A DNA stretch of 64,000 nt, from positions 1,437 through 65,436 of the forward strand of contig DAOUPA010000001.1 of the NCBI GenBank assembly GCA_030626405.1. The letters are read 5' to 3'. The DNA is from Planctomicrobium sp. Its GTDB lineage: Bacteria; Planctomycetota; Planctomycetia; Planctomycetales; Planctomycetaceae. Below are positions 16,559 to 46,214 of the stretch, piece by piece (position 1 is the first letter of the stretch; every line of letters starts with the position of its first letter). A program made the translations under genes and the position numbers. The notes beneath the pieces were generated by a model. It did no database searches. It worked only from the letters and a program-made list of their open reading frames with translations, and was not told the DNA's origin.

Positions 16559-18043
<1,485 letters not shown>

Positions 18044-18075
18044 TCCAGGAATTTGGAGTTGGGAAAACGATTTTA

Positions 18076-18098: not shown

Positions 18099-18115
18099 AA
18101 AAATTTCATTTCAAA

Positions 18116-25240: not shown

Positions 25241-26347
25241 ATGGCGGATAATAAGAAACTTACAACTGCAGAAATTCTTGCCCTCGCCCGCCAGCAAAAC
25301 AGCGGTGGAGGTGCGGATGCCGATGACGCTTCGGAGAGCAGCACTGCTCCTGAAACTTCTCAGGCTCCTGTTCCGACTGAAGATAAAAAACCTGCGGCAG
25401 CCCCAAAGTCAACTGCTGACATTCTCGCTGCTGCTCGTACTCAGGGGGGTGAGGCCGAGAAGCCGAAACCTGCCACGGCGCCAGGGTCAACAGCAGATAT
25501 CCTGGCTGCTGCCCGTGCTCAGGGAGGCGGGGCCCAAGGCGGAGGAGCGCCAAAGCCAAAGCCTGCTGCCACTGCACCTAAGTCGACCGCTGATATCTTG
25601 GCGGCTGCTCGTGCTGGAGGCGGAAGTGCTGCGAAAGCGGCACCTGCTGCAAGTCAGCCGAAGGTGAAAAAAGCTGAAGCCGCACCTGTCGGTGATCGTC
25701 CTGCATTGAAGGATATGGTTGCCGCGGTCAAAGAGGCTCAGGCTTCAGGTGGTCCGGCAAAGCCGAAGCTTCCTGTTGGTAAGCCTGCACCTGCGAAACC
25801 AAAGTTTCCGAGCAAGAAAGAAAAGGTTGAGCGTCGAAAATTTGTTGCTACCTTGGCTGTCCTTCTGCTCACACCTTTTGTGGTGGCATGGTCTTCGATG
25901 AGTGCGATTGCGGCAATCTGGTCGCTCGGAATTGCTCGATTCATGATGCCGAACATGATGTTGGAGCTGCCATCCAAATTTAAGGTTGGCCCCCCTTCTG
26001 ATTTCCCACCAGGCAGTGTCTCTGCAAAGTTTAAGGCAAGCCGTGGGATTTGGATTATCAATACTGATGAGTATGAAGGTCAGGGCATTATTTACGCGTT
26101 GGCTTCCGTTTGTACTCACCTTGGGTGTACTCCTAACTGGCTCGAAGGGGAACAGAAATTCAAATGTCCCTGTCACGGGTCAGGTTTTTATATCACTGGA
26201 GTGAACTTCGAAGGCCCTGCACCTCGCCCCTTGGAGCGAGTTGGAATTAGCATTGCGGATGATGGAATGCTAGAAGTTGACAAAAGTGTGAAGTTTCAGG
26301 AAGAGCTGGGTCAGTGGTCTGACTCCAAATCTTACGAAGTGGCATAA
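25241..26347 (+). CDS. Rieske [2Fe-2S] subunit of a cytochrome b6f/bc-type complex, with a long repeat-containing N-terminal extension
   Basis: 368 aa. The Rieske boxes are CTHLGC and CPCHGS. A twin-arginine motif (ERRKFV) followed by a TM helix occurs only at about residue 198. It is preceded by an Ala/Pro/Lys-rich region with repeated STADILAAAR modules. Confidence 0.9.
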   Translation: MADNKKLTTAEILALARQQNSGGGADADDASESSTAPETSQAPVPTEDKKPAAAPKSTADILAAARTQGGEAEKPKPATAPGSTADILAAARAQGGGAQGGGAPKPKPAATAPKSTADILAAARAGGGSAAKAAPAASQPKVKKAEAAPVGDRPALKDMVAAVKEAQASGGPAKPKLPVGKPAPAKPKFPSKKEKVERRKFVATLAVLLLTPFVVAWSSMSAIAAIWSLGIARFMMPNMMLELPSKFKVGPPSDFPPGSVSAKFKASRGIWIINTDEYEGQGIIYALASVCTHLGCTPNWLEGEQKFKCPCHGSGFYITGVNFEGPAPRPLERVGISIADDGMLEVDKSVKFQEELGQWSDSKSYEVA

Positions 26348-26414
26348 GGCCTTGAGCGAAGCTCGATTCGTTTCCAGTGTTTTACTAACTCAATAGTGTC
26401 CGTCAGGTAACTGC

Positions 26415-27188
26415 ATGTCGGTAACTGAATATATCCGGAAGTCACAGATTTGGCGAAGTATTTTTCGTCATCCTGCCCCATATGATCGCCGCAACCGTGC
26501 GGTTGTCATTCTGACGAACTTCTTCCTCCACCTGCACCCGGTCTCTGCAAAGAAGGGCGGAATTGCCCTGTCGTACACGTGGTGCATGGGTGGAATTACT
26601 TTTTTCCTATTCCTTGTCGAAACGCTCACTGGCGTCCTGTTGATGTTCTACTATCGACCGACGCTGGAGTGGGCATTTACAGATATTCGTGCCCTGCGAG
26701 ACGTGAACACTCTGGGGATCATGCGTGAGATTCACCGCTGGGGGGCGCACGCGATGGTGATCACCGTGTGGCTCCATATGTACCGGGTGTTTCTGACGGG
26801 GAGTTACAAGCCTCCGAGGGAATTCAACTGGGTCATTGGTGTCTTGCTACTCGTGTTGACTCTACTATTATCGTTTACCGGTTACCTGCTTCCGTGGGAT
26901 CAGCTAGCCATCTGGGCGATTACGGTCGGTTCGAACATGGCTCGTGCGACACCTTTCCTTGGTCATGAAGGTCCGGGGTTCCAGCTACTTAATGTTGGTG
27001 GGTTTGATTTAATCACAAATGCAAGTGATGCGAGATTCCTGCTCCTCGGGGCACGTACAGTGGGTGAAGAAACCTTGAATAGGTTCTACATTCTGCACTG
27101 TGTTGCAATTCCGATTGTGGTTTCAGGGCTGATCGCCGTTCACTTTTGGCGCGTTCGTAAAGATGGTGGGATTAGTCAACCGCTATAG
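26415..27188 (+). CDS. Cytochrome b, b6-type (N-terminal four-helix half)
   Basis: 257 aa. Helix B has H-x13-H (EIHRWGAHAMVITVWLH). Helix D has H-x14-H (LHCVAIPIVVSGLIAVH). WCMGGIT aligns with the YCLGGIT of cytochrome b6. Confidence 0.9.
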   Translation: MSVTEYIRKSQIWRSIFRHPAPYDRRNRAVVILTNFFLHLHPVSAKKGGIALSYTWCMGGITFFLFLVETLTGVLLMFYYRPTLEWAFTDIRALRDVNTLGIMREIHRWGAHAMVITVWLHMYRVFLTGSYKPPREFNWVIGVLLLVLTLLLSFTGYLLPWDQLAIWAITVGSNMARATPFLGHEGPGFQLLNVGGFDLITNASDARFLLLGARTVGEETLNRFYILHCVAIPIVVSGLIAVHFWRVRKDGGISQPL

Positions 27189-27270
27189 GTTTTTGACTGG
27201 TTGTCAGCTTCACCACGAAGGTGGGGCCGTTTTAAGTTTGTACATTGGTAGAGTGCGGTATTAGGGAATT

Positions 27271-28635
27271 ATGAATCCTCATCCCGATTTAACGGTTGGC
27301 GTGATTCACGGCCTTGGCTGGCTGTACCTGCTGTTGTTCTTTTTGAACCTCGGCTGGACAGTCCGTAGCTATAAGGTTGATGGTCAATACGAAAGCCTGA
27401 TGGGCATCAAGCATGCCCCCAAGGCTTTGGTGTGGGCAGCTTACTCTGCGCTTTTACTGATCGTGACGCTGGTTCACTTTGCGGTTGAAAGCGACGCATC
27501 GAATTTCAAACTGAGACTCCCCGAATTCATTAAAAATCCGGCAGACGCCGTGATTGCGAATCCGATTAGTTTTTTCTGCCTGTCGATAGTCATTTACGCT
27601 GCCATCATCCTGCTTCGCAAATGGTGGGTCAAGCCGACAGTCTCTTGGGTTTTATTCAACCTGAGCGTGCTGTTCATTACTGTGAGTATGACAGACTACG
27701 ACTTCCGTAAAATTGTCGGCAAGCCCGATAACGTTCCTATTGTCGGGATGCTCTTCCTGGTCGGCTTCACGACATGGCTATACTTCTCAAAAGCCAATGA
27801 GAACGACCGGCGAATTGCCGAAGGACTTCCGGTTCGCGAGAAGGAACTCTCTGACCAGGTTCTTGTCTGGCCGGATCTGGTCTACACTGAAATGATCTGT
27901 ATGATCCTGATTACGGCACTTCTCATTGTCTGGGGTGTCGCACTTCAAGCTCCACTCGAAGAACCTGCCTCAGCAGTGAAGACCCCGAATCCTTCAAAAG
28001 CTCCGTGGTACTTCCTCGGACTGCAGGAAATGCTCGTCTACTTTGACCCCTGGATGGCTGGTGTTGTTCTGCCGAGTGTGATTCTCGTCGGACTGATGGC
28101 AATTCCATACATTGACTTCAACACCAAGGGCAACGGATATTACACATTCAATGAACGTAAGTTTGCAATTTCAACATTCCTATTTGGCTTTATGCCGCTG
28201 TGGACCGGAATGATCGTTCTCGGAACCTTCATTCGTGGACCGAACTGGAACATGTTTGGACTCTATGAATACTGGGATGCACACAAGCTTGAGGTGCTGA
28301 ACAATGTCAACCTGTCCGATTATTTCTGGCTGAGTTTCCTGGAACTTCCACTTCCGAAACCTGACCCGCAAGCGGGGTTTTTCTCGCAAGCTGGTTCAAT
28401 CCTTTTACGTGAGTGGACCGGAATCCTTGTGATTTTGTTTTACTTATTCGCGATTCCACCACTATTGGCAGTCACCATTTTCAAGAAGTTCTTCGTGAAA
28501 ATGGGATTTGTCCGGTTTATGGTGCTTGCGAACCTGTTTCTTTTTATGGCCTCACTACCATTGAAGATGGTGCTGCGGTGGGTCTTTAATCTGAAATACA
28601 TCGTTTCGATTCCCGAGTGGGTCTTTAACATCTAA
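27271..28635 (+). CDS. Subunit-IV-like (cytochrome b C-terminal half) membrane protein, enlarged
   Basis: 454 aa with about 10 TM helices. KAPWYFLGLQEML corresponds to the PEWYF motif of subunit IV and the cytochrome b C-terminal half. The first roughly 220 aa are extra TM helices. Confidence 0.75.
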   Translation: MNPHPDLTVGVIHGLGWLYLLLFFLNLGWTVRSYKVDGQYESLMGIKHAPKALVWAAYSALLLIVTLVHFAVESDASNFKLRLPEFIKNPADAVIANPISFFCLSIVIYAAIILLRKWWVKPTVSWVLFNLSVLFITVSMTDYDFRKIVGKPDNVPIVGMLFLVGFTTWLYFSKANENDRRIAEGLPVREKELSDQVLVWPDLVYTEMICMILITALLIVWGVALQAPLEEPASAVKTPNPSKAPWYFLGLQEMLVYFDPWMAGVVLPSVILVGLMAIPYIDFNTKGNGYYTFNERKFAISTFLFGFMPLWTGMIVLGTFIRGPNWNMFGLYEYWDAHKLEVLNNVNLSDYFWLSFLELPLPKPDPQAGFFSQAGSILLREWTGILVILFYLFAIPPLLAVTIFKKFFVKMGFVRFMVLANLFLFMASLPLKMVLRWVFNLKYIVSIPEWVFNI

Positions 28636-28708
28636 GTTAAGTTGATTTCTGTCGGCACATGTCAGTTGTGACAGGTTCGCAGGCAGAGCAGAGCAACGTT
28701 GAATATCA

Positions 28709-32881: not shown

Positions 32882-33744
32882 TGATTCGCATGCAAACTAA
32901 ACAGATAGTATTTTCCGGACTTTTGTTGTCGACTCTCTTCGTCGCTGGATGTGGTTCATCCGTACGAAAAGAAGCCCTCGGCGGTGGAGCCTTAACGCCT
33001 GTGACTATCACACTTTTGCGTGAAGGTGGATCAGGTGATTCAGAGGCGGAATCCGCAGAATCGGCTGGCCCGAAAATCACAGAATTCGGAATGGTTCGCG
33101 GAAAAATTTCCGTCGATGGAAGCTTGCCACAACTTGCTGATGTGAGTGCGAAAGGTCAGGCGAAAGATGCCATCTGCGGAGAGAAGGGAATTAAGAATGA
33201 ATCCGTTACAGGAGAAAATGGTGGCTTGGGGAATGTCTTCATCTACCTGAAAAAGGTTCCAAACGTTGATGTTCCACCTCCATCAACAGATCAGATCGTC
33301 ATGGACCAGCAAGGATGCATGTTCGTTCCGCACGCACAGGTTGTTCAGGTTGGTCAACCAGTCCTGCTTAAAAATTCTGATCCAATTGCCCACAATGTGA
33401 AACTACAAGGTGGTTCGAATTCTCTTGCAGAAACGATTTCGCCAAACAATGCCGCCAACGTCGAATACAAATTTCAGTTCAGTGATCGAAAGCCAACCGG
33501 CGTTGTCTGTGACTTTCATACATTCATGTCTGCTTACGTCATGCCTGTCGACCATCCATGGGCTGCGGTGACAAATCCTGACGGGACGTTTGAAATACCA
33601 AATGTTCCTGCTGGAAAGGTAGAGTTCGTCATCTGGCACGAGAAGCTCGATTATATCGAACGCTCATATTCGGTTGATGTTCCAGCAAACGGTGATGCAG
33701 CGCCTATCGAGATCACAGTTAATGCGTCGAAGTTGTCCAGTTAA
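32878..33744 (+). CDS. Cupredoxin-like (type-1 copper) lipoprotein, paralog 1
   Basis: 288 aa. The lipobox is FVAGC. The cupredoxin pattern is FVPHAQVVQVGQPVLLKNSDPIAHNV ... CDFHTFM (C-x2-H-x2-M). A C-terminal beta-sandwich follows (NPDGTFEIPNVPAGKVEF). Its ATG overlaps the upstream stop (ATGA). Confidence 0.7.
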   Translation: MMIRMQTKQIVFSGLLLSTLFVAGCGSSVRKEALGGGALTPVTITLLREGGSGDSEAESAESAGPKITEFGMVRGKISVDGSLPQLADVSAKGQAKDAICGEKGIKNESVTGENGGLGNVFIYLKKVPNVDVPPPSTDQIVMDQQGCMFVPHAQVVQVGQPVLLKNSDPIAHNVKLQGGSNSLAETISPNNAANVEYKFQFSDRKPTGVVCDFHTFMSAYVMPVDHPWAAVTNPDGTFEIPNVPAGKVEFVIWHEKLDYIERSYSVDVPANGDAAPIEITVNASKLSS

Positions 33745-33775
33745 ACCATTATCGAAAAGAGACACGGAAACAGTA

Positions 33776-34747: not shown

Positions 34748-34769
34748 CCACAAGTATCGAGTTTTTCCT

Positions 34770-36215
34770 GTGAGAACTTTTTTCACACTATCGATGATCT
34801 GCCTGATCTCCGGTTGCGGAGGACAGCCTGAATTTTCGCACAGCGAGAAGTTTCAGACGCTGAAGCCGTACGCACAAATTTACGTGGATCAGGTTCTCGA
34901 CAACTACTTCGGATCACCATCTGACATGGTTGCCTGGGACAAACTGCCACTGGAACTTCACTACGGTCAAGGGACTGTTGTTGAAGCGAGTGGGCGAATG
35001 TTGACGGTCGAACTTCAAGCCCCACATGCCGAAATCACTGCTGGCACAGAAGTTCTTTGGGACAGTGGCATTCTCAATGACAAAGACAGCGCCTGGATTC
35101 TTGAATGGGACGAAGCAAAGCACCAAGCAAAATTGGAATCACCACTGGCAACCAATCCTGAAGTTGGTGATGCGGTCATTCTCGGACCTGGACAAATTCT
35201 GGCAACTGGGCGAATGCTCTATGCAGAACATTGTCAGCATTGTCACGGCGTTGCTGGCGACGGGAATGGACCGACAGCTCCTTATTTGAATCCACGACCT
35301 CGCGATTACCGCAAAGGGATTTTTAAATTCACAACGACACAAAGTTCCAAACGAGCCAGTCGTGAAGATTTGTCGCGTATCGTGGAAGACGGAATTCCTG
35401 GAACGTATATGCCTTCATTCAAATTATTGACTGAAGACGAGATGACCTCCATCATCGAGTACGTCATGTGGCTCTCGATGCGGGGTGAACTTGAAAACCA
35501 ACTCATCGGACTTCTGGCAGACAGCTATTCCGTTGAAGCGGTAGAAGATCGGATCGCTGGTGGGGATGAGACTTCTGATACAATTCATCAAGAATTCATT
35601 GATGCAGTCAACGATCCCGATTCATTTCCGTTTGAAGTCGACACAATCGTTTCTCGATTTACATCGGAATGGGTCTCGTCTCAGGAACCTGATGCAGAAG
35701 TTCAGCCTTTGACTCCGCGCACCCCTTCCTCTGATGAGTCGATCGCGAAAGGCCGCGAATTGTATTTGAAACCAAGCCTCAAGTGTGCTCAATGCCACGG
35801 CGAAGCTGGTCTCGGTGACGGATCACAAACTTTTGCTGTCTCCAAAGATGCGGCAGGACAGGATAATCTGACGCCTGGTCTCTACGACACTTGGGGAAAC
35901 CTGGTGAAACCCCGAAATCTTCACTCTGGAATATATCGTGGTGGTCGTCGACCGATCGATCTTTACTCTCGTATTTATGCAGGAATCAAAGGCACACCGA
36001 TGCCTGCGTTCTCTTCAACATTGCTCCGTAAATCTAATCCAGAAGATTCCGGATCGGAAATGACGGATGAAGATATCTGGCATCTCGTCAACTACATCTA
36101 CAGCATTCCATTCGAAGATGTCAAAGCGGGGCAGGGTGGATCGTCTATTGCAAATCCAGTGAAAGACGCCAATACCGCCAGTGAAGAAGATAGCGAAGAA
36201 GTTGCAGTAAATTAG
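34770..36215 (+). CDS. Diheme cytochrome c lipoprotein
   Basis: 481 aa from GTG 34770. The leader is (M)RTFFTLSMICLISGC. It has two CxxCH motifs (CQHCHGVAGDGNG; CAQCHGEAGLGDG) and GIPGTYMP / GIKGTPMP Met-ligand contexts. The longer ORF from 34581 overlaps the upstream gene. Confidence 0.8.
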   Translation: MRTFFTLSMICLISGCGGQPEFSHSEKFQTLKPYAQIYVDQVLDNYFGSPSDMVAWDKLPLELHYGQGTVVEASGRMLTVELQAPHAEITAGTEVLWDSGILNDKDSAWILEWDEAKHQAKLESPLATNPEVGDAVILGPGQILATGRMLYAEHCQHCHGVAGDGNGPTAPYLNPRPRDYRKGIFKFTTTQSSKRASREDLSRIVEDGIPGTYMPSFKLLTEDEMTSIIEYVMWLSMRGELENQLIGLLADSYSVEAVEDRIAGGDETSDTIHQEFIDAVNDPDSFPFEVDTIVSRFTSEWVSSQEPDAEVQPLTPRTPSSDESIAKGRELYLKPSLKCAQCHGEAGLGDGSQTFAVSKDAAGQDNLTPGLYDTWGNLVKPRNLHSGIYRGGRRPIDLYSRIYAGIKGTPMPAFSSTLLRKSNPEDSGSEMTDEDIWHLVNYIYSIPFEDVKAGQGGSSIANPVKDANTASEEDSEEVAVN

Positions 36216-36346
36216 TTTTTTGTTTTGAGTTGTATAGTGCCCGCGAATAAAGTTGTCGCATTCCTCGCAGTATTGTCCCGCGAGGTAGAATTTGGCAATG
36301 TTGTCCATGAGTGGTATAAACCTTGTGACCTGATGGGGTTATTCAA

Positions 36347-37228
36347 GTGAAGTGGTTTTGGTGTCTATTTTTTGCATTTTGGCCAATTGTCGCAATTGTC
36401 GTCTGCTTGTTGGCGCCAGGTAACAACTGGTGGTTTCCAGGTGAGGCTGCGTCTCCGCTTGGTCGGCGTATTGATGACTTGTTCTACATGATCTTGTGGA
36501 TCACTTCGATCACATTCGTGGGAACCCAACTCGTTCTGGCGTACGTGTTGTTCAAAGGTGCGAGTGATACCGAACCAGGTACAGCGAATGAGAAAGCTTG
36601 GTTCTCTCATGGAAGCCATAAACTGGAAGTTATCTGGTCGAGCGTTCCAGCAGTGATCCTGCTGTTCATTGCGTTCTATCAACTTGATGTCTGGGCTGAA
36701 TACCGTGTCAAAGATGCGTTTCCACGCAAACGTATGGAAGCTGTCTTTGAACGAATTCATCAGGACCGTCAAAAGAACGACAGTCTCGCATTGGCAGAAG
36801 TCACAGCACGACAATTCGAATGGCGAATTCGCTATCCCGGCTTCAACGCAGATGGCACGCTCAAGGCACTCATGCCAGACCCACAACCAACCGATTTGTA
36901 CGCAGTCAACGATCTTCACTTACCTGCCAGTGCACCAGTGATGATCAACCTGAGAACTCAGGATGTCCAACACTCATTCTTCTTACCAGAACTACGTATC
37001 AAACAAGATGCAGTGCCTGGATTAGTCATTCCAATTTGGTTTGAAGCGGACCAACAACGTTCCTATCAACTGCTCTGTGCTGAACTTTGCGGTTGGGGAC
37101 ATTACAAAATGAATGCCCGGTTCGTCGCAGAATCGGACGAACAGTTTATCGAATACCTCCGTCAACTCGAACGCGAACAAAACGAAGATCGAGTCGACGA
37201 CGCACCAGACACGGATGAAGAAGAGTAA
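36347..37228 (+). CDS. ctaC: Cytochrome c oxidase subunit II (CuA; no fused cytochrome c domain)
   Basis: 293 aa with two N-terminal TM helices. The CuA site is HSFF ... CAELCGWGHYKM. Confidence 0.92.
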   Translation: MKWFWCLFFAFWPIVAIVVCLLAPGNNWWFPGEAASPLGRRIDDLFYMILWITSITFVGTQLVLAYVLFKGASDTEPGTANEKAWFSHGSHKLEVIWSSVPAVILLFIAFYQLDVWAEYRVKDAFPRKRMEAVFERIHQDRQKNDSLALAEVTARQFEWRIRYPGFNADGTLKALMPDPQPTDLYAVNDLHLPASAPVMINLRTQDVQHSFFLPELRIKQDAVPGLVIPIWFEADQQRSYQLLCAELCGWGHYKMNARFVAESDEQFIEYLRQLEREQNEDRVDDAPDTDEEE

Positions 37229-37289
37229 TACTGAAAGAGCAATCTTTCGAGTCTTCTTTTTCGTTAGTCAATACATTTGGAGTGAGGCG

Positions 37290-39074
37290 GTGAGTTCAGT
37301 CGCAGCCACAACAGAAACTGCAGAACACGGTCATCATGCACACAATGATGATCTACTTGCGCTCTTAAAAGCAGCACCATTCTGGTCAACCGATCATAAA
37401 GTGATCGGTATCCAGTTTATGATGACGACACTTCTCATGTTGATGGTCGGTGGTGCGCTCGCGCTGGGGGTTCGCTGGCAGTTGGCATTTCCCTGGGAGA
37501 ACATGCCGTTTTTCGGAGCATTGGTTCCGGCGACAGCAGGCGGACAAATACCGCCTGAGTTCTACACAATGCTCTTTACGATGCATGCAACGGTGATGAT
37601 CTTCCTTGTGATCATTCCAATTCTTGCAGGAGCATTCGGAAACTTCCTGATTCCGCTGATGATCGGTGCGGACGACATGGCGTTCCCGATGTTGAACGCC
37701 TTGAGCTACTGGTTCATGTGGCCTGCAATCGCCTGTTTTGGATGTAGCTTTTTCTTCGGAGGTGGTCCAGCTGCAGGGTGGACATCATACCCAGCTCTTT
37801 CTGCCCTTTCTCAAGCTGCTCCAGGCTCTGGACACGCACAAACATTCTGGTTGTTGGGAGTTACATTTGTCGGGTTCTCGTCGATGATGGGTTCGATCAA
37901 CTACATGACGACGATCATCAATATGCGGGCACCTGGCCTGACGCTCTTCCGGATGCCACTGACAATTTGGTCAATGTTCATCACAGCAATTTTACAGGCG
38001 TTCGCGTTGCCGGTCCTCACCGCCGCAGGCTTCATGCTTGTCACCGACCGGATCTTGGGCACTTGCTTCTTCGTTCCGGCTGGACTGATCGTTAATAACG
38101 CCGATCCAACAGTCGGCGGCGGACAAACGCTGCTTTGGCAGCACTTGTTCTGGTTCTATTCTCACCCTGCGGTGTACATCATGTTGCTGCCTGCAATGGG
38201 TATGGTTTCGGACATGCTTGCCTGCATGTGTCGTAAGCCAATCTTCGGATACAAGCCAATGGTTTATTCCATGTCTGCGATTGCTGGCCTAGGGTTTATC
38301 GTGTGGGGGCACCACATGTTTACCTCTGGAATGAATCCCGCGCTCGGGATGACATTCATGATTTCGACAGTCATGATCGCGTTGCCATCAGCGGTGAAGG
38401 TGTTCAACTGGATCGGTACGATCTGGGGCGGGAAACCGGAATTCAACGTTGTCTTCCTGAATTGTATTGCATTCGTTTCGATGTTCATCGTCGGTGGACT
38501 TTCCGGAATTTTCATGGCTGCCGTGCCTGTCGACATTTATATTCACGACACATACTTCATCGTTGCTCACTTCCATTACGTGCTGTTCGGGGCAACGTTG
38601 TTTGGAGTCTTTGGAGCCATCCACTTCTGGTATCCGAAAATGTTCGGTCGCTACATGAGTGAAGGCTGGGGCAAGCTGCACTTCTTCTTGACCTTTGTCG
38701 GCTTCAATGGAACATTCTTCCCCATGCACCTGCTTGGTGTTGCTGGGATGCCTCGTCGATATGCCGATCCTTACCTATACCCTTATCTGGAACATTTTCT
38801 CCCGATGAATCAATTCATGACGATTTGTGCTGCCCTCATGGGATTCGCACAATTCATCTTGATCGGGAATTTCGTTTTGAGTTGGTTCTTCGGTAAAAAG
38901 GCCGGGCGGAACCCTTGGAATGCAAATGGTCTCGAATGGGCAACTCCATCGCCTCCTGGTCATGGAAACTTCGACATTCCACCGGTTGTTTACCGTGGAC
39001 CGTACGAATACGCAAATCCAGATACCGAAGCTGACTTCTGGCCACAAACGCAGCCGCCGAATCCAGCGACTTAA
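37290..39074 (+). CDS. ctaD: Cytochrome c oxidase subunit I (A-type heme-copper oxidase)
   Basis: Motifs: WFYSHPAVYIMLLP, GHHMF, HFHYV and 12 or more TM helices. The GTG start at 37290 follows a GGAG/GAGG motif. The ORF from 37113 overlaps ctaC. Confidence 0.95.
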   Translation: MSSVAATTETAEHGHHAHNDDLLALLKAAPFWSTDHKVIGIQFMMTTLLMLMVGGALALGVRWQLAFPWENMPFFGALVPATAGGQIPPEFYTMLFTMHATVMIFLVIIPILAGAFGNFLIPLMIGADDMAFPMLNALSYWFMWPAIACFGCSFFFGGGPAAGWTSYPALSALSQAAPGSGHAQTFWLLGVTFVGFSSMMGSINYMTTIINMRAPGLTLFRMPLTIWSMFITAILQAFALPVLTAAGFMLVTDRILGTCFFVPAGLIVNNADPTVGGGQTLLWQHLFWFYSHPAVYIMLLPAMGMVSDMLACMCRKPIFGYKPMVYSMSAIAGLGFIVWGHHMFTSGMNPALGMTFMISTVMIALPSAVKVFNWIGTIWGGKPEFNVVFLNCIAFVSMFIVGGLSGIFMAAVPVDIYIHDTYFIVAHFHYVLFGATLFGVFGAIHFWYPKMFGRYMSEGWGKLHFFLTFVGFNGTFFPMHLLGVAGMPRRYADPYLYPYLEHFLPMNQFMTICAALMGFAQFILIGNFVLSWFFGKKAGRNPWNANGLEWATPSPPGHGNFDIPPVVYRGPYEYANPDTEADFWPQTQPPNPAT

Positions 39075-39162
39075 TACTGCCGTACTGAAGTTCTTCTAAT
39101 TCTGATACCCATTTTCCGCAGTTCGCTGCAAAGTTGTATTTCCAGAGACTTGTCAATTTCTA

Positions 39163-40137
39163 ATGTCCCCACAAAGTTCAACAAACTGGTTTCGCCGACT
39201 GGCCGTTTCGACGGTTTGCCTGACGATGGTGACGTTGATCTTTGGAGCATTGACGACATCCAAGAACGCTGGAATGGCTTTTCGTGACTGGCCGACATCC
39301 GATGGTTACTTAATGGTGACTTATCCCTGGTTCGGTGACTTCGCGAAAAATTGGGATAAGTTTCTGGAGCATGGGCACCGACTGGCAGGAATGTTGATCG
39401 GCATCTGGTCAATTGCCCTTGTCGCGTGTGCCTTCAAAACCCAGCAAAGACAAACAGTCAAAACCCTTTCAATTCTGGTGTTATTGGGTGTAATTTGTCA
39501 GGGACTACTCGGAGGATTTCGCGTTCAACTTGATGAACGTGGACTGGCAATGCTCCACGGAGCATTCGCAGCAATCGTCTTCGCCCTGATGGGTGCCGTC
39601 ATCCTCCTTTCAGGAAAGAAGTGGGCCGCACCAGAACCCGAATCAGAACGTAACACGCTGCGAACGATGAAGGTTCTTTCCGTATTGGTCGTTGCTATTC
39701 TCACTGCTCAGTTCATCTTCGGTGGACTGATCCGACATCGAGGGACCGGTTTACATGAACATCTGGTACTGGGTGTCGCATCGCTCGGTCTCATTTTTGT
39801 GAACTTCACATTCTGCGGATTTTCGGAATCTGGCTGGTTGAGAAAGTCGGGAATTATTCTGCTGCTCATTGCCTTGGGACAAGTCGGCTTGGGAGCCGGT
39901 GCCTGGGTTTTGAAATTCGGATTTGCCACAACAGGTTACGTAGCGATTAGTGATTCGATTCAGCAGGTGACTCTGCGCACGGCCCACACTGTTTGGGGCA
40001 TCGTCACATTTCAAGCTGCCGTTGTTCATCTCTTAAAAGTTTTCCGAGTGAGTTCTGTTTCTCATATTGCAAGTTCAGAACCGCTGGCGATCCGCCGATC
40101 CGGGAACACGCTCGCGATTGGAGGGAGACAGGAATGA
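39163..40137 (+). CDS. ctaA: Heme A synthase (COX15/CtaA family)
   Basis: 324 aa with 8 TM helices and conserved His contexts (EHGHRLAG, ...LHEHL). It lies between ctaD and ctaB. Confidence 0.85.
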   Translation: MSPQSSTNWFRRLAVSTVCLTMVTLIFGALTTSKNAGMAFRDWPTSDGYLMVTYPWFGDFAKNWDKFLEHGHRLAGMLIGIWSIALVACAFKTQQRQTVKTLSILVLLGVICQGLLGGFRVQLDERGLAMLHGAFAAIVFALMGAVILLSGKKWAAPEPESERNTLRTMKVLSVLVVAILTAQFIFGGLIRHRGTGLHEHLVLGVASLGLIFVNFTFCGFSESGWLRKSGIILLLIALGQVGLGAGAWVLKFGFATTGYVAISDSIQQVTLRTAHTVWGIVTFQAAVVHLLKVFRVSSVSHIASSEPLAIRRSGNTLAIGGRQE

Positions 40138-41105
40138 GTACATCTGTTGCCACTCCCGTTCGAAGCAAGACTGCTTCACCAACGAATCAAATCAGCGCTG
40201 GTTATGTCGATGATCGATATCCGATGTCGGCTCGGATTGCCAGCTATTCTGAACTCGCCAAGCCGCGCATTGCACTGATGGTGTTACTGTCAATGGGGGT
40301 CGGCTACCTACTGGGTTCACAAGGATCCTGGAAACTGCTTCCGTTGATCAACGCCGGGATTGGCGTGGTACTTGCTGTTGTTTCAGCGAGTGCACTGAAT
40401 CAAGTCATCGAGCGTAAGACTGACGCACTGATGCCACGGACAGAAAGTCGACCATTGCCGACTGGAAAACTGACAACAACCGAAGTCCTCATCTTCGCTT
40501 TGCTGTGTTCGGTCGTCTCCTTCGTCTATCTCCTACTGACCGTTAATACATTAACCGCCGTCCTGACTGCAGCAACGACGGTTCTTTATGCTGGAATTTA
40601 CACACCGCTGAAAAGGTATACGTCGTTTTGCACAGCGGTTGGTGCGATACCCGGGGCCGCTCCGCCGGTCCTCGGTTGGGTCGCCGCTGGTGGAAACCTG
40701 GACATTGTTGCCTTCTCGTTGTTTGCAATCATTTTCGTCTGGCAGTTTCCACATTTCCTTGCCATCGCGTGGATGTACAAAGACGAATACTCCGGTGCCG
40801 GATTGAAAATGGTCCCTGGGAATGGTCGACTAAAAATTGTTGGAGCCATCTCGCTGGGGTACGCCCTGGTGTTAATTCCAGTCAGTTTATTGCCTACCCA
40901 TTTTGGGTTGGCTGGCGACTTTTACGGAGTCGTTGCCATCGTCCTTGGAATGATTTACATCGCTGCGGCGATCGGTTTTTATCGAGAAGAATCTCGGCAG
41001 AACGCACGTCGATTACTGTTTGTCTCACTCGTTTACCTTCCGGGCGTTTTGCTCGCATTAACGTTTGATCATTTACGATTATTAAACAATTCCACCTTCG
41101 GGTAA
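40134..41105 (+). CDS. ctaB: Protoheme IX farnesyltransferase (heme O synthase)
   Basis: 323 aa from ATG 40134, which forms an ATGA overlap with the ctaA stop. UbiA-family motifs are present (NQVIERKTDALMPRT, YTPLKR, WQFPHFLAIAWMY). Confidence 0.92.
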   Translation: MSTSVATPVRSKTASPTNQISAGYVDDRYPMSARIASYSELAKPRIALMVLLSMGVGYLLGSQGSWKLLPLINAGIGVVLAVVSASALNQVIERKTDALMPRTESRPLPTGKLTTTEVLIFALLCSVVSFVYLLLTVNTLTAVLTAATTVLYAGIYTPLKRYTSFCTAVGAIPGAAPPVLGWVAAGGNLDIVAFSLFAIIFVWQFPHFLAIAWMYKDEYSGAGLKMVPGNGRLKIVGAISLGYALVLIPVSLLPTHFGLAGDFYGVVAIVLGMIYIAAAIGFYREESRQNARRLLFVSLVYLPGVLLALTFDHLRLLNNSTFG

Positions 41106-41119
41106 CATTGTCGCATTTT

Positions 41120-41145
41120 GCCTCACGGGCATCATACTGTGAGGC
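41120..41145 (+). repeat. Hairpin related to the GCCTCAC variant of the REP-like element
   Basis: GCCTCAC ... 12-nt loop ... GTGAGGC, 15 nt after the ctaB stop. It shares the stem sequence with the copy at 22905 but lacks the CACTTNAAGTG core. Confidence 0.35.
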
Positions 41146-41224
41146 ATGTGACACCTGAGTCGTGGGCACAAAATTCCTTTAATAGATTCGCGGGTTATTG
41201 ACTCGCACTTGAGGTTGCTGTTTC

Positions 41225-42238
41225 ATGTCTGACTCACATCATGCTCCTGCCATGCACATGGGTTTGCCGATTTCCAGAGCCAAACTGGGCATGTGGTTGT
41301 TTCTCGGTACGGAGATCATGTTTTTCACGGCGTTCATCGGAACGTATATCGTGCTGTACTTCGGCTCCGTCGACGCCACCGGCAAATCCGCCTGGCCGAC
41401 CGATACACATGTCACTCACCTCAACATCGCCGCAGGTGGGATCAACACATTTGTCCTGCTTGCTTCAAGTTACTTTGTCGTCGTCGCTCACGAATCGATG
41501 TCAAAGCGGGATTTCGCGAAAGCTCGAAAGTTTCTGATTTTCACATTTATTCTCGCATGTGTGTTCCTGGGAATTAAGTCCTTTGAATACTACGGAAAGT
41601 TCACTCACGACATTCTTCCCGGACACATTCCAGAGACAGACACGCAAGCGATCGGGAAAATGGAAAGACAAGTGGAGTCCCGATTCCACAAGCGGCTAGA
41701 TTCCGTCGTTCCTGATATCGCCATTACAGATGTTGACGGAGACAACAAACCAGACCGCGCGATGCCCACCGACCAGAGTATGATCTATTACCAAAAGGCG
41801 GCAGCACTTCCTCAACTCATTGAGAGTGCAGAAGGTTCTCGAAAGGCAGACTATGAAGCATTACTCGCACTCAATGGTCAAGTCGGCGTTCTCCGCGAAC
41901 AAATTTCAGGAAACAAATTGACCTTCGTGGAAGCTGAAGAGTCGCTGCACGAGATGGTCGAAGATGAGCATTATGGCAGCATCCTTAGCGGTCTGCATAT
42001 GTCGACTCCGATCTTGTATGGGAATTTGTTTGCCTCAGTCTACTTCCTGATGACTGGCTTTCACGCAATCCACGTGATTGTCGGAATGATTCTATTTGGA
42101 ACGGTTCTGGCCCAAGGTGACAAACTGAGTGAGCGTTGGTCAAACTGGGTTGAAAACAGCGGACTCTATTGGCACTTTGTCGACCTGGTCTGGATCTTCC
42201 TGTTTCCGTTGCTGTACATCATTCCTGGAAACATTTAA
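41225..42238 (+). CDS. ctaE: Cytochrome c oxidase subunit III, with a large internal insertion
   Basis: 337 aa. Motifs: [37 protein letters not shown]. About 130 hydrophilic residues are inserted after the FEYY helix. Confidence 0.88.
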
Positions 42239-42316
42239 GTTCGAATTAAAACGTAATCTTGTTTGTGCAACCGATAATGTTGCGAAGAAGTTTAAGCTGA
42301 CGATGAAGGCCATCTC

Positions 42317-42724
42317 ATGGACCACGCACACGACGAATCACATCCGCATGTGAATTATTTTTTCATCTTTCTGTTATTATGCGGTTGCACAGCACTGTCC
42401 GTTATTTTTGATGTCGTAAAAATCACACCGGCGCTCGTTGTTTTTGCAGTTCTGGCAGTTGCTGTTGCCAAAGCATCTCTGGTGATGACTTTCTTCATGC
42501 ACTTAAAGTATGAAGGTCGGTGGAAATATGTCATTTTGCTGCCGACCGCGATTCTTGGAGTCGGGCTGATGGTTGCACTCTCCCCTGACATGGCAATGCA
42601 CTACTACGAATACGATGTGATGCAGTCCAGAATTGTCGCCCCTCGCAGTGAACACGGTGCCGGTCATGATGCCGAAGAGAGCGCGGAACACGATGGGGAA
42701 GCGAAAGACGCGAAGCATCATTGA
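42317..42724 (+). CDS. ctaF: Cytochrome c oxidase subunit IV (prokaryotic COX4 family)
   Basis: 135 aa with three TM helices. The family motif KASLVMTFFMHLKYE is present, followed by an acidic/His-rich tail. Confidence 0.8.
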   Translation: MDHAHDESHPHVNYFFIFLLLCGCTALSVIFDVVKITPALVVFAVLAVAVAKASLVMTFFMHLKYEGRWKYVILLPTAILGVGLMVALSPDMAMHYYEYDVMQSRIVAPRSEHGAGHDAEESAEHDGEAKDAKHH

Positions 42725-42752
42725 TTGCTGAAATCTCAAGAGTGCGCGTTTA

Positions 42753-42775
42753 GCCTTACACTTAAAGTGTACGAC
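42753..42775 (+). repeat. REP-like palindromic element, degenerate copy
   Basis: GCCTTACAC-TTAAA-GTGTACGAC with the GTTTA prefix and AAATA suffix, 29 nt after the ctaF stop. Confidence 0.55.
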
Positions 42776-42923
42776 AAATAGTTTCGATCCAAGATGCTGC
42801 CCGTTACAAATGCGGCGTCCCACCATCATTCAAGGATTGACGAAACTGACGTGAGCGACAACGGAGCGGTTTTTCAGATTCACAACTCCAATTTCAAGGC
42901 CTGACAAGGCACTGGAAAGATCA

Positions 42924-43853
42924 ATGTCGTCAGTCGAAGTTGAACAACTTGAATTTCGCTACGGCGAACGAATTGCGCTTCGCGATGTGAACTTCACCGC
43001 TTCGGCAGGTGAAGTCTTTGGATTGCTCGGCCCCAACGGTGGTGGCAAATCGACTTTGTTTCGAATTCTTTCAACGTTGCTTCCAATCCAGAAAGGCCGC
43101 GCGGCAATCGCTGGACATGATGTTGCCAGCGAACCAGATGCCGTGCGACGATCCATCGGTGTGACGTTTCAGTCTCCCAGCTTGGATGGCAAATTGACTG
43201 TCCTCGAAAATCTTCGCCATCAAGGACATCTTTATGGTCTGTCTGGCGAGAATCTCAAGCTTCGCTGCTCGGAAGTGATGGATCAACTTGGCGTTGCTGA
43301 TCGAGCGAAAGACTATACGGAAAAACTCTCCGGAGGCCTCAAACGCCGAGTGGAAATCGCCAAGTGCCTGCTGCACGCTCCGAAAGTTCTGTTACTCGAT
43401 GAACCAAGTTCTGGTCTCGACCCCGGTGCCCGTCACGGTCTCTGGGAGATACTGCTTGGGCTACGCGAGAAATCAAACGTTACGATTCTGGTCACGACAC
43501 ATTTAATGGAAGAAGCGGACCGCTGTGATCGTCTGGGTGTGTTGGACAATGGGGAATTGATTGCATCCGGAACTCCAGACGAGTTGCGCTGCATGGTTGG
43601 CGGCGACAGTTTGACGATCCAAACAGAGAACCCTGAAGCACTCAAAACGAAACTACAAGAACGTTTTCAAGCTGAAGTCATTCAGCTTGGCGACTCCTTA
43701 CGTATTGAACGTGAAAACGGTCACGAACTGCTCGCTCAGATTGCGACCCAGTGCGAAGGGGAATTTCGAAGTTTAACCCTGGGGAAACCGACTCTGGAAG
43801 ATGTCTTCATCAAATTGACCGGACGGAACTTGTCCGCAGGAGAAGACGAATGA
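42924..43853 (+). CDS. ABC transporter ATP-binding protein (ABC-2 / DrrA-NosF-like)
   Basis: 309 aa. Walker A is GPNGGGKST, the signature is LSGGLKRR and Walker B is LLLDEPSSGLD. Confidence 0.9.
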   Translation: MSSVEVEQLEFRYGERIALRDVNFTASAGEVFGLLGPNGGGKSTLFRILSTLLPIQKGRAAIAGHDVASEPDAVRRSIGVTFQSPSLDGKLTVLENLRHQGHLYGLSGENLKLRCSEVMDQLGVADRAKDYTEKLSGGLKRRVEIAKCLLHAPKVLLLDEPSSGLDPGARHGLWEILLGLREKSNVTILVTTHLMEEADRCDRLGVLDNGELIASGTPDELRCMVGGDSLTIQTENPEALKTKLQERFQAEVIQLGDSLRIERENGHELLAQIATQCEGEFRSLTLGKPTLEDVFIKLTGRNLSAGEDE

Positions 43854-44707
43854 CGGCATCAAATCCAACAACCGGGCAAACGGCTTCAACCTCGCCTTTG
43901 TGGCTGGCAACCTGGACGCTTGCAGTGCGAGAAGTCGTTCGCTTTCTGCGTCAGCGATCACGACTCATTGGCGCCATTGGGCAACCGGTCGTCTTTTGGA
44001 TTTTGTTCGGTGCTGGTCTACAAGGCTCGTTTGCAATGCCAGGTAGCGAAGGCACCGATGCGCTCTCGTTTCAAGAATACTTTCTGCCTGGTGTCGCGGT
44101 TTTAATTGTGTTGTTCACATCGATCTTTTCTTCGATTTCGATCATTCAGGACCGGAACGAAGGATTCATGCAAGGAGTTCTTGTTGCGCCTGTTCCGCGA
44201 ACGTCAATCGTTCTCGGGAAGGTTCTAGGCGGAACGGCTCTGGCTTTATTTCAAGCGTTTTTGTTCCTCGCTGTCGCGCCACTTTTGCATTTCATCAATT
44301 TAGCTCCGGAAATGAGTTTGAATCTTTCCGCTGGCAGCATTGTTGCAGCAGCGATGTTTCTGTTCTGGATTTCACTGGGGCTCACCGCCTTGGGGTATCT
44401 GTTTGCCTGGAAGATCGACTCTGTGCAAGGGTACCACGGTGTGATGAGTGTCGTTCTGTTGCCGATGTGGTTGCTTTCGGGAGCATTTTTCCCCGGATCT
44501 GAAAGTCGCTGGATGTCACTGCTGATGAGTTTGAACCCGCTCACCTATGGTGTTGCTGGCTTGAGGCGAACGTTAGTTGTCGACCAACAACTTCTCGCTG
44601 ACTACCCTTCAATGATGGTGTGTGTTCTCGTGACGGTCGGCTTTGCGGTCGCGTGCCTGAGCATCGACATCTGGATCACAAGACGAGACCCGGCGGTGGC
44701 GTCATGA
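43850..44707 (+). CDS. ABC-2 type transporter permease
   Basis: 285 aa from ATG 43850, which forms an ATGA overlap with the ATPase stop. It has 6 TM helices and the ABC-2 pattern (REVVRFLRQRSRLIGAIGQP...). Confidence 0.8.
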   Translation: MTASNPTTGQTASTSPLWLATWTLAVREVVRFLRQRSRLIGAIGQPVVFWILFGAGLQGSFAMPGSEGTDALSFQEYFLPGVAVLIVLFTSIFSSISIIQDRNEGFMQGVLVAPVPRTSIVLGKVLGGTALALFQAFLFLAVAPLLHFINLAPEMSLNLSAGSIVAAAMFLFWISLGLTALGYLFAWKIDSVQGYHGVMSVVLLPMWLLSGAFFPGSESRWMSLLMSLNPLTYGVAGLRRTLVVDQQLLADYPSMMVCVLVTVGFAVACLSIDIWITRRDPAVAS

Positions 44708-45900
44708 AAAAACAATTAACTGTCATTCAATTGATTCTTCTTGCACTCGTGTTGTTGGTGAATTCGCCAGTAACGTTTGCTCAGGATGATGTCACCATCA
44801 GGCCCGGAGAAGAACTTCCTCCAACCTACCGACTGAATACGTTTGATGAACCTCGGCTCTGGAACCCCGACGAAGTTGATGATTTCACCCTTCTCGATCA
44901 AACCGGGAAGCCTTTTACGAAACAGGATTTACTCGGCAAGCCATGGATCGTGAATTTCATTTTTGCCCGCTGTCCACACCAGTGCCCGATGACTTCTCGA
45001 ATGATGATGGAGTTCGACAAGACCGTTTCCAACGTCGATATGCGGATGGTCACAATCACTGTCGATCCGGAACACGATGACGTTGATGTGATGCAAAGAT
45101 ACGCCGAAATCTGGGGTGCCGAACCACCGAGATGGCTGTTCGGAACCGGAGAACCAGAGGAAGTCTGGAAACTCATCCGCGAAGGTTTTAAGGTTTCAAC
45201 CTGGAAAAACGTCGGCACTGCAAGTAGCCCAGGAATGGAGTTCGCCCACGACAACAATATCATTCATATTGGAGCCACCGGAAAAATTCTCGGTCGGTAC
45301 GATTCCACTGACCCAAAGGAAATGTCAACACTCCGCAGAGTCCTCAAAGGCCAGATCGAAACACCTGAGAAATTTCAACCAGCGGTCATCGAAGCGAGAG
45401 AAGCTCAAGAGAAGACTGTCCTTGAGTATGTCAAAAGCGTCAAAGTTGATCCGTTTGAGAAACTCCCACGGTGGGCCAAAAAATTGCCAGCGACAAACGC
45501 CATGCTGAACGCTCTGGCAACGTTGCTGCTTCTTATCGGCTTCTCCGCGATCAAAGCCAAGCAGGTCAGTCTACACAAGAAAATGATGCTGTACGCCTTT
45601 GGAATATCGTGCGTATTTCTGATTTCATACCTGACGTATCACTATGCTCTGCACCACTATACTGGTCTACGGGGGAAGCCTTTTGAGCAAACGGGTACGA
45701 TAAAAACCGTTTATTACTCAATTCTCATCAGCCATGTCATTCTGGCCGCATTGGTCCCTATTCTGGCATTGGTGACAATCGTCAAAGGTTTGAGGCAGAA
45801 CTGGGATTCTCATCGCCGGTGGGCAAAAGTGACTTTCCCGATATGGCTGTACGTTTCCGTGACAGGCGTTATCATTTACTGGATGTTGTACAAGCTCTGA
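44704..45900 (+). CDS. SCO1/SenC copper chaperone fused to a DUF420 (CtaM-like) membrane domain
   Basis: 398 aa from ATG 44704, which forms an ATGA overlap with the upstream stop. The order is signal peptide, thioredoxin-fold SCO motif (FIFARCPHQCP with a downstream His), then four C-terminal TM helices of DUF420 type. Confidence 0.8.
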   Translation: MKKQLTVIQLILLALVLLVNSPVTFAQDDVTIRPGEELPPTYRLNTFDEPRLWNPDEVDDFTLLDQTGKPFTKQDLLGKPWIVNFIFARCPHQCPMTSRMMMEFDKTVSNVDMRMVTITVDPEHDDVDVMQRYAEIWGAEPPRWLFGTGEPEEVWKLIREGFKVSTWKNVGTASSPGMEFAHDNNIIHIGATGKILGRYDSTDPKEMSTLRRVLKGQIETPEKFQPAVIEAREAQEKTVLEYVKSVKVDPFEKLPRWAKKLPATNAMLNALATLLLLIGFSAIKAKQVSLHKKMMLYAFGISCVFLISYLTYHYALHHYTGLRGKPFEQTGTIKTVYYSILISHVILAALVPILALVTIVKGLRQNWDSHRRWAKVTFPIWLYVSVTGVIIYWMLYKL

Positions 45901-45932
45901 ACTAATTTTCTTCAGAGCAAACAGGTGATTTT

Positions 45933-46214
45933 ATGAAGAAGCAAATTCGAATTCTGCTCGTCGCGCTCGTACTATCGAGCGGTTTCGTTGCAGCGTCTCC
46001 TGCGGATGCCTGCCCTATGTGCCAGGTCGCTAATGAAGACGACACAAATGCCGCCGCGATGGCGCGACCTCGCGCGTACATGTACAGCATTCTCTTCATG
46101 CTGGCGATGCCTGCGTCGCTGTTCACTGTATTTGGAATTTCGTTTTATCGATTGTCTCAAAAGCGAACAGCAATGAACGAAGAACTTTTGGCGGCCACTC
46201 ACTCAGAACAGTAG
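45933..46214 (+). CDS. Small secreted/membrane-anchored CPMC-motif protein
   Basis: 93 aa with a signal peptide, ACPMCQ, a C-terminal TM helix and a short cytoplasmic tail. It lies 33 nt downstream of the SCO1 fusion. I did not recognise a family. Confidence 0.5.
   Translation: MKKQIRILLVALVLSSGFVAASPADACPMCQVANEDDTNAAAMARPRAYMYSILFMLAMPASLFTVFGISFYRLSQKRTAMNEELLAATHSEQ

Follow-up and report, generated by a model that had tools for sequence, protein, structure and literature searches.

Here we describe a cluster of respiratory genes in a window of 64,000 nucleotides from Planctomicrobium sp. (contig DAOUPA010000001.1 of assembly GCA_030626405.1, positions 1,437 to 65,436 of the forward strand); the window is the whole stretch of DNA that was analysed, and coordinates refer to it throughout. 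Open reading frame (ORF) listing, translation and comparison with Pfam and NCBIfam place 17 consecutive plus-strand genes within 21 kb, at positions 25241-46214 (Table 1). The genes for a Rieske protein, cytochrome b6 and subunit IV come first and are followed by those for an octaheme cytochrome c, two cupredoxins (cup1 and cup2) and a diheme cytochrome c, then by ctaC, ctaD, ctaA, ctaB, ctaE and ctaF and, finally, by the genes for an ATP-binding cassette (ABC) ATPase (abcA), an ABC-2 permease (abcP), a SCO1-DUF420 fusion protein (sco) and a 93-amino-acid protein with a CPMC motif. The intergenic distances range from -14 to 199 bp, and four gene pairs (octaheme/cup1, ctaA/ctaB, abcA/abcP and abcP/sco) share a 4-nt ATGA overlap. 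An earlier note on this DNA, made from the sequence alone, had described the region as a co-directional run of genes with short gaps or ATGA overlaps that encode a complete chain from quinol to oxygen. The close packing is as it was described, every gene named there was recovered on the plus strand at the position given (ORFs and Pfam), and, at the level of gene content, the family assignments bear out a complete quinol-to-O2 chain together with genes for heme A and copper biogenesis. The count of 18 genes has to be lowered to 17, as the larger gaps of the cluster, searched for the eighteenth gene, contain no credible ORF.

Table 1. Genes of the respiratory cluster, with positions in the window and the basis of each assignment (aa, amino acids; TM, transmembrane helices)
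Gene product	Position	Strand	Basis of assignment
Rieske [2Fe-2S] subunit, 368 aa	25241..26347	+	Pfam PF00355, E = 3e-9
b6-type short cytochrome b, 4 TM, 257 aa	26415..27188	+	Pfam Cytochrome_B, 144 bits
Enlarged subunit IV, 454 aa	27271..28635	+	Pfam Cytochrom_B_C, 22.8 bits; PetD alignment
Membrane-anchored octaheme cytochrome c, 1390 aa	28709..32881	+	CxxCH count, domain scans
Cupredoxin lipoprotein 1 (cup1), 288 aa	32878..33744	+	Homologue alignment, profile, AlphaFold model, Foldseek
Cupredoxin lipoprotein 2 (cup2), 323 aa	33776..34747	+	Aligned with all four Cu ligands
Diheme cytochrome c lipoprotein	34770..36215	+	Two Pfam Cytochrom_C domains
CtaC, oxidase subunit II	36347..37228	+	Pfam COX2, COX2_TM
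CtaD, oxidase subunit I, A2 type	37215..39074	+	Pfam COX1, 485 bits
CtaA, heme A synthase	39163..40137	+	Pfam COX15-CtaA
CtaB, heme O synthase (protoheme IX farnesyltransferase)	40134..41105	+	Pfam UbiA, 177 bits
CtaE, oxidase subunit III	41225..42238	+	Pfam COX3, two stretches
CtaF, prokaryotic oxidase subunit IV	42317..42724	+	Pfam COX4_pro
ABC transporter ATPase, DrrA-like	42924..43853	+	Pfam ABC_tran, DrrA1-3_C
ABC-2 permease, DrrB-like	43850..44707	+	Pfam ABC2_membrane; NCBIfam drrB
SCO1/SenC (CPHQC) fused to DUF420 (CtaM family)	44704..45900	+	Pfam PF02630, PF04238
Small membrane protein, 93 aa, CPMC motif	45933..46214	+	Conservation

The gene order is conserved across related genomes. 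When one genome per species was scanned, relatives of the diheme cytochrome c turned up in 289 genomes, from which the best 80 loci were taken with 10-kb flanks and compared with the window by tblastn of all window proteins against the fetched loci. Upstream sequence of 9 kb or more is available for 48 loci; in 45 of these, the genes for the Rieske protein, cytochrome b6, subunit IV and the octaheme cytochrome lie directly upstream of those for the cupredoxin and the diheme cytochrome c. The order ctaC-D-A-B-E-F was found in all 43 loci with enough downstream sequence, and wherever the flanks extend far enough, the ABC genes, the SCO1-DUF420 fusion and the small protein come next. The arrangement holds even in metagenomic contigs with unrelated flanks, where identity is 38-40% for the octaheme and 30% for cup1. 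The earlier note had named lack of synteny in relatives as grounds for giving up its reading; the recurrence of the same order in 45 of 48 independent species-level genomes indicates, on the contrary, a linkage beyond chance.

The number of cupredoxin genes varies among these loci. The spacing between the octaheme and diheme genes is bimodal, at approximately 1-1.4 kb in 29 loci, which corresponds to one cupredoxin, and approximately 1.9-2.3 kb in 16 loci, which corresponds to two, such that, judged by spacing, two copies are present in 16 of 45 relatives. In a set of relatives (L082-L084 and L087), cytochrome b6 is always 257 aa long and 84-93% identical to the window protein, CtaD is 68-81% identical, and the octaheme, cupredoxin and diheme proteins are 30-57% identical. 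Four of the loci (L054, L074, L061 and L067) are labelled 'Candidatus Kuenenia stuttgartiensis' or 'Chitinophaga' and carry the Planctomycetaceae-type cluster with an aa3 oxidase (41-43% identity on the diheme cytochrome c); these are probably mislabelled or mis-binned contigs of metagenome-assembled genomes (MAGs).

The products of the first three genes have the hallmarks of a Rieske/cytochrome b complex of the b6 type. Both cluster-binding boxes of the Rieske protein, CTHLGC and CPCHGS, are present, and its best NCBIfam match is PetC-like, at a score under the cutoff. Cytochrome b is split between two genes, for the 257-aa b6 with four transmembrane helices and for the separate 454-aa subunit IV. 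Cytochrome b6 contains the CxGG motif (WCMGG), with the cysteine for covalent attachment of heme ci/cn, and histidine pairs spaced H-x13-H in helix B and, as in the b6 type, H-x14-H in helix D (LHCVAIPIVVSGLIAVH); the meaning of the CxGG motif has been discussed previously (PMC5600118, PMC3509893). Residues 199-314 of subunit IV align to PetD of the b6f complex, and its best sequence matches in the PDB are b6f subunit IV chains (E = 2.6e-5). The protein is predicted from hydropathy to have about 10 transmembrane helices, and its length is kept at 451-455 aa in relatives. At the position of PEWY in PetD, subunit IV has APWY as the motif of the quinol oxidation (Qo) site, and neither PEWY nor PDWY is present. 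By this motif, the complex falls into the APWY clade of cytochrome b, which includes Planctomycetes (PMC4122944) and in which, as reported by Kao and Hunte (PMC4122944), no complex had been characterised in vitro or in vivo, reverse operation having been speculated upon. The best NCBIfam matches are ExtP for cytochrome b6 (256.3 bits, with a cutoff of 290; the cytochrome b6 model itself gives 186 bits) and ExtQ for subunit IV (50.1 bits, with a cutoff of 150). Membership in the Geobacter ExtOPQ family was rejected because both scores are below the cutoffs.

The Rieske protein has an additional feature, an N-terminal, cytoplasmic extension of approximately 195 aa (window 25241-25830) that precedes a twin-arginine translocation motif, ERRKFVA (residue ~198), and a transmembrane anchor. 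Four decapeptides of the form (S/T)T(A/S)(D/E)ILA(A/L)AR, at nt 25271, 25418, 25496 and 25592, are spaced by linkers rich in Pro, Ala, Gly and Lys within this extension. Orthologues from about half of 47 related loci contain one to four copies of the decapeptide, which no other part of the window encodes; it resembles a conserved short linear motif that some cytoplasmic partner would recognise.

The octaheme cytochrome contains exactly eight CxxCH motifs, none of which varies among 23 homologues with identities down to about 40%, and no further cysteines; this upholds the earlier claim of a 1390-aa octaheme protein. From the N-terminus, it comprises a transmembrane helix (residues 16-34) that is highly conserved and among the best-kept parts of the protein, a long charged segment that is probably helical (~40-210), four closely spaced CxxCH motifs in a c7/c3-like arrangement (258-410), a class-I cytochrome c domain with CxxCH at 545, an inserted HtrA-like PDZ domain (664-746), and three more CxxCH motifs at 832, 1023 and 1279. 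The PDZ domain is missing from some homologues according to the Pfam listing. Comparison of the sequence with the PDB returned only a marginal match to the PDZ domain of DegQ; the AlphaFold model of residues 230-1390 is poor (predicted local distance difference test score, pLDDT, 64; predicted TM-score, pTM, 0.42), and its Foldseek matches are HtrA-type PDZ domains only. The sequence resembles neither cytochrome f nor cytochrome c1, and the product of this gene is thus neither a cytochrome f nor a mono- or diheme cytochrome c of the kind that accepts electrons in known complexes. Because in the related loci the octaheme gene is always located directly 3' of the gene for subunit IV, and because its transmembrane helix is highly conserved, we take the protein to be an integral c-type subunit of the complex and, presumably, the replacement of cytochrome f/c1. 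The conservation of the helix argues for a packed subunit as opposed to a loose anchor. The protein is 73% identical to its counterpart in Thalassoglobus polymorphus, and the named matches belong to Planctomycetaceae genera.

Neither cup1 nor cup2 matches a Pfam cupredoxin family, the Pfam matches being weak, CarboxypepD_reg-like and limited to the C-terminus. Nevertheless, the fold and the ligand set confirm that both lipoproteins are type-1 copper cupredoxins, with copper binding predicted, as the earlier note had them. Across 30 homologues, the type-1 copper ligands of cup1 (H172, C211, H214 and M217) do not vary, the family profile matches amicyanin with the ligands aligned (E = 6e-6), and the loop spacing, C-x2-H-x2-M, is amicyanin-like. 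The AlphaFold (AF2) model of cup1 has a pLDDT of 85, and Foldseek pairs it with amicyanin, plastocyanin and pseudoazurin at target TM-scores of 0.6-0.77; AcoP is among the weaker fold matches. In cup1, the lipobox VAGC and a short linker precede the amicyanin-like domain, which is followed by a C-terminal CarboxypepD_reg-like beta-sandwich. Its paralogue cup2 (43% identity) has the lipobox FSGC and a low-complexity linker of ~100 aa rich in Thr, Pro, Ala and Glu. Apart from the ligands, the family shows an invariant Cys147 in the motif D-Q-x-G-C-x-F-x-P-H, a near-invariant His152 and a mostly kept Cys near residue 100, which may form a disulfide or a second metal site. The assignment should also benefit annotation, in which these lipoproteins partly figure as 'hypothetical' or as 'carboxypeptidase regulatory-like domain' proteins. 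In L086 (236-3464), an unrelated metagenomic contig, the gene for a distant homologue (38% identity) immediately precedes ctaA-ctaB-DUF420, indicating that this cupredoxin family is tied to genes for heme A and oxidase biogenesis outside the composite cluster as well.

The diheme cytochrome c carries the heme motifs CQHCH and CAQCH and the lipobox ISGC. Its start is ambiguous: the public gene call begins at ATG 34794, and we prefer GTG 34770 (481 aa) because it gives a proper lipoprotein signal peptide. The best PDB match is 6h5l_B (E = 4e-27), and the NCBIfam QcrC model scores 27.7 bits against a cutoff of 200. In the related loci, the gene is always directly 5' of ctaC. Given this invariable adjacency and an oxidase without a fused cytochrome c, the diheme protein is the likely donor to CuA. 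All the carriers appear to be tethered to the membrane, the octaheme by its transmembrane helix, and the cupredoxins and the diheme cytochrome c by lipids, as predicted from their lipoboxes.

CtaD aligns with the Paracoccus enzyme (1ar1_A) at E = 2e-123 and reads WFYSHPAVY in place of WFFGHPEVY (YS/A for FG/E). Under the Pereira classification, A2-type enzymes are those in which the glutamate of helix VI is replaced by a YS motif. By the motifs of CtaD, the oxidase is of the A2 type of aa3 enzymes, without the helix VI glutamate and with the YS motif. The best solved relatives of CtaD are cytochrome c oxidases. The CuA site of CtaC is present (CAELCGWGHYKM and the upstream His), and its best NCBIfam match is CoxB (125.6 bits, with a cutoff of 147.7). 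A quinol oxidase was considered and rejected given the intact CuA ligands. CtaC has no CxxCH motif and consists of COX2 domains only, so the fused cytochrome c (caa3) that is common in A2 enzymes is absent here. In CtaE, a hydrophilic insertion of ~140 aa (residues ~125-265) separates the third and fourth transmembrane helices, and the orthologues range from 296 to 395 aa. Two start codons merit mention: that of ctaB was placed at ATG 40134, and that of ctaD is ambiguous between ATG 37215 and a later ATG.

Among the heme A synthesis and biogenesis factors put forward by the earlier note, CtaA, CtaB and the SCO1-DUF420 fusion, which is also found in relatives, are established by their Pfam families. 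The ABC-2 exporter and the CPMC protein are assigned to this set by association only. The exporter matches are generic and DrrAB-like, the ATPase scoring 273 bits with the NCBIfam drrA subfamily, under the cutoff; the ATPase gene is present within the flank limit in 37 of 43 loci. The CPMC protein has no Pfam or NCBIfam match and is kept 3' of SCO1-DUF420 in 11 loci, which makes it a candidate for a new oxidase or copper biogenesis factor. Its signal peptide is accompanied by the invariant motif ACPMC-x-x-ANE and by a single transmembrane helix, which is highly conserved (RPxAYMYSILFML-MPAT).

We consider it likely that the cluster represents one complete aerobic branch from quinol to O2, made up of two modules and the associated biogenesis genes. 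In the first module, the b6-type Rieske/cytochrome b complex would oxidise membrane quinol at an APWY-type Qo site; from what is known of the phylum, this quinol is presumably menaquinol. The Rieske cluster would pass the high-potential electron to the octaheme cytochrome, in place of cytochrome f/c1, and the octaheme would carry electrons along a periplasmic heme chain. One or two lipid-anchored cupredoxins would then shuttle electrons from the octaheme to the diheme lipoprotein, which would donate directly to CuA of the A2-type aa3 oxidase. This order of carriers, from octaheme to copper to diheme c, is the one first proposed in the earlier note, and we infer it from the order of the genes and from the fact that they travel together; the close packing of the genes would fit co-transcription. 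CtaA and CtaB would make heme A, and the SCO1-DUF420 protein would load copper and mature the oxidase, with probable assistance from the ABC-2 exporter and the CPMC protein.

Scans for promoters and terminators across the cluster and its 3' end yielded counts that do not differ from those in shuffled sequences and carry no information on operon structure. Several observations weigh against a single dedicated branch. The octaheme cytochrome is far larger than a simple relay needs and contains a PDZ domain, which hints at further partners, and the APWY motif has been tied to operation in reverse by Kao and Hunte (PMC4122944). The link between the modules is itself broken in 3 of the 48 loci (L008, L011 and L062) and, additionally, in the shorter L009 and L010. 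In L008-L011, which come from Planctomicrobium SH527, a P. piriforme MAG and two further MAGs, the genes from cupredoxin through diheme c to cta are preceded by unrelated genes, with no b6 or octaheme gene there. In Planctomicrobium sp. SH668 (L062/L085, CP195793.1), queG is followed directly by the diheme gene, and the genes from Rieske through cupredoxin are absent at that site. The split loci imply that the two modules are genomically separable, with the junction around the cupredoxin gene(s). The dedicated linkage of the bc-type complex to the oxidase that the earlier note suggested is accordingly retained as the prevalent arrangement, seen in 45 of 48 loci, and not as an obligatory one.

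A more demanding interpretation is that the b6-type complex, the octaheme, the tethered carriers and the aa3 oxidase form an obligate physical supercomplex, analogous to that of actinobacterial bcc-aa3, in which electrons are confined to a fixed assembly. Such an assembly would account for an adjacency that is kept over deep divergence, for the membrane anchor on every carrier and for the lack of a gene for soluble cytochrome c in the cluster; moreover, the PDZ domain of the octaheme is a protein-protein interaction module, and the enlarged subunits IV and III could offer interfaces. However, the modules come apart in SH527, the P. piriforme MAG, two MAGs (L009 and L011) and SH668, the number of cupredoxins varies between one and two, and some homologues lack the PDZ domain. 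The carriers evolve fast, at 30-57% identity compared to 84-93% for cytochrome b6, and cup2 has a long flexible linker, features that fit mobile tethered shuttles at least as well as, if not better than, fixed interfaces. Furthermore, the diheme protein is not an integral subunit like QcrC, as its score with that model attests, but a lipoprotein encoded beside ctaC. We therefore see an obligate supercomplex as possible but rather improbable, and the stronger statement, that Planctomycetaceae respire via a dedicated, physically integrated menaquinol oxidase supercomplex of a hitherto unseen type, composed of an APWY b6, octaheme, blue copper, diheme c and an A2 aa3 oxidase, as doubtful.

Another possibility is that the b6/octaheme complex functions as a multipurpose or reverse-running oxidoreductase between quinone and the periplasm, its octaheme exchanging electrons with other partners in the periplasm or outside the cell, and that its adjacency to the cta genes reflects co-regulation or history. 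The proposal that the APWY clade runs in reverse (PMC4122944) belongs here, as do the best NCBIfam matches, to ExtP and ExtQ from the selenite/tellurite reduction operon of Geobacter, the excess of eight hemes and 1390 aa over what a relay requires and the separability of the modules in a few genomes. These Ext scores are nonetheless under the cutoffs (256 < 290 and 50 < 150), the oxidase donors and the oxidase come immediately after the complex in 45 of 48 genomes, and no further reductase or oxidase gene is found within the cluster or the related loci inspected, so we regard this alternative as quite unlikely. Still less probable, in our assessment, is that the cupredoxins are oxidase accessories that deliver copper or protect CuA instead of carrying electrons. 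They do adjoin the oxidase genes, as a distant homologue adjoins ctaA-ctaB-DUF420 in L086, they have the extra invariant Cys147 and near-invariant His152 outside the type-1 site, and copper delivery was once proposed for Cup (ORF1; later AcoP) of the rus operon (PMC2754497). On the other hand, their full invariant His-Cys-His-Met set with amicyanin-like spacing is typical of cupredoxins that function in electron transfer, and a dedicated copper chaperone, SCO1, is already encoded in the cluster. At the SH668 site, both the cupredoxin and the b6 module are missing and the oxidase cluster is intact, which argues that the cupredoxin is dispensable for oxidase assembly.

The run of plus-strand genes starts further upstream than the cluster, at ~19953, and includes an FAA-hydrolase gene, cstA, the gene for an ABC-2 membrane protein and queG, all of which are non-respiratory, and the next gene 3' of the cluster is uvrC-like and on the opposite strand. 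Rfam and tRNA scans over the whole window produced no matches. Approximately 7 kb upstream of the cluster, an F-type ATP synthase operon (a, b, b', delta, alpha, gamma and beta) occupies window positions 10540-18100 on the plus strand, and a citrate synthase gene is located at 1166-2449.

If the reading as an integrated supercomplex is correct, the APWY clade would thereby receive its first functional assignment, forward and O2-linked. The tight, family-wide linkage to an oxygen reductase gives the clade a concrete, testable physiological context, and cultured Thalassoglobus, Planctomicrobium and Fuerstiella are available for such tests. The cluster would also show that a heme wire, tethered copper proteins and a diheme cytochrome c can stand in for the cytochrome c1/f and soluble cytochrome c steps, which bears on the evolution of the coupling between complexes III and IV and on the reasons for which carriers are tethered or fused in certain lineages. 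None of this contradicts current understanding. No description or characterisation of the composite cluster was found in the searchable literature, in line with the earlier note, which was not aware of any biochemical study of it, but its parts have precedents (PMC12954380, PMC2754497), and the cluster is less unprecedented than that note implied.

A close precedent for the first module comes from anammox bacteria. Cytochrome f is replaced by a hexa- or octaheme cytochrome c in two b6f-like complexes of Kuenenia, Kustd1480-1485 and Kuste4569-4574, and Kustd1485 is a large protein with long alpha-helices near its membrane anchor (PMC12954380). These complexes and the cluster described here share their origin in Planctomycetota, a four-helix b6, an enlarged subunit IV and a multiheme cytochrome c instead of cytochrome f; the likeness of our octaheme to Kustd1485 is one of description and not of compared homology. 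The anammox complexes, however, include an NAD(P) oxidoreductase subunit and, in one of the two, an octaheme cytochrome like that of hydroxylamine oxidoreductase, and have no oxidase linkage. In contrast, no gene for an NAD(P)/FeS oxidoreductase subunit is present at 25241-46214 or in the related loci, and the cluster continues into cupredoxins, diheme c and aa3. Subunit IV also differs, with about 10 transmembrane helices in the cluster compared to 5 in the anammox complexes.

With the cyanobacterial and chloroplast b6f-plastocyanin system, the cluster shares the split into b6 and subunit IV, the heme ci cysteine and a type-1 copper carrier. Cyanobacterial plastocyanin also feeds an aa3 oxidase. 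The differences are that the cluster has no cytochrome f and no identified small Pet subunits, that its Qo motif is APWY and not PEWY, and that its cupredoxins are lipid-anchored three-domain proteins whose genes are grouped with those of the oxidase. The Qo motif is the same in Geobacter ExtOPQ, a member of the APWY clade that provides the best family-model matches. Apart from the sub-cutoff scores, the cluster differs from ExtOPQ in its partner, which is an oxygen reductase as opposed to genes for multiheme metal or metalloid reduction.

Actinobacterial bcc-aa3 (QcrCAB with CtaCDEF) is comparable at the level of the entire chain. It leads from menaquinol to O2 without a soluble cytochrome c and has a diheme cytochrome c as the bridge to CuA, its bc and oxidase genes are neighbours, and its structures 6adq and 7rh5 are among the matches of CtaD. 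Nevertheless, in bcc-aa3, the diheme QcrC is integral, cytochrome b is unsplit and the motif is PDWY, whereas the cluster combines a split b6, an octaheme c subunit, a separate diheme lipoprotein, interposed cupredoxins and an A2-type oxidase.

The second module finds a parallel in the rus operon of Acidithiobacillus ferrooxidans, in which cyc2-cyc1-cup/acoP-coxBACD-rus are followed by cta biogenesis genes (PMC2754497). There, a membrane-bound diheme c4, cupredoxins and an aa3 oxidase are co-transcribed, with the heme A genes adjacent (PMC2754497); for the cluster, we infer co-transcription from the layout. The electrons of the rus system come from Fe(II) via an outer-membrane cytochrome, whereas in the cluster they would come from the quinol-oxidising Rieske/b complex; the bc1 complex of A. 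ferrooxidans is encoded by another operon and operates in the uphill direction. The cupredoxin subfamilies differ as well, being rusticyanin and AcoP in the rus operon and an amicyanin-like type with a C-terminal beta-sandwich in the cluster. Thus, each element of the cluster has a precedent, in the multiheme b6f-like complexes of anammox bacteria, the rus operon, actinobacterial bcc-aa3 or the blue copper of cyanobacteria. What sets the cluster apart is the combination, conserved family-wide, of an APWY b6, an octaheme with a PDZ domain, three-domain cupredoxins with lipoboxes, a diheme c that is a lipoprotein of its own and an aa3 oxidase of the A2 type.

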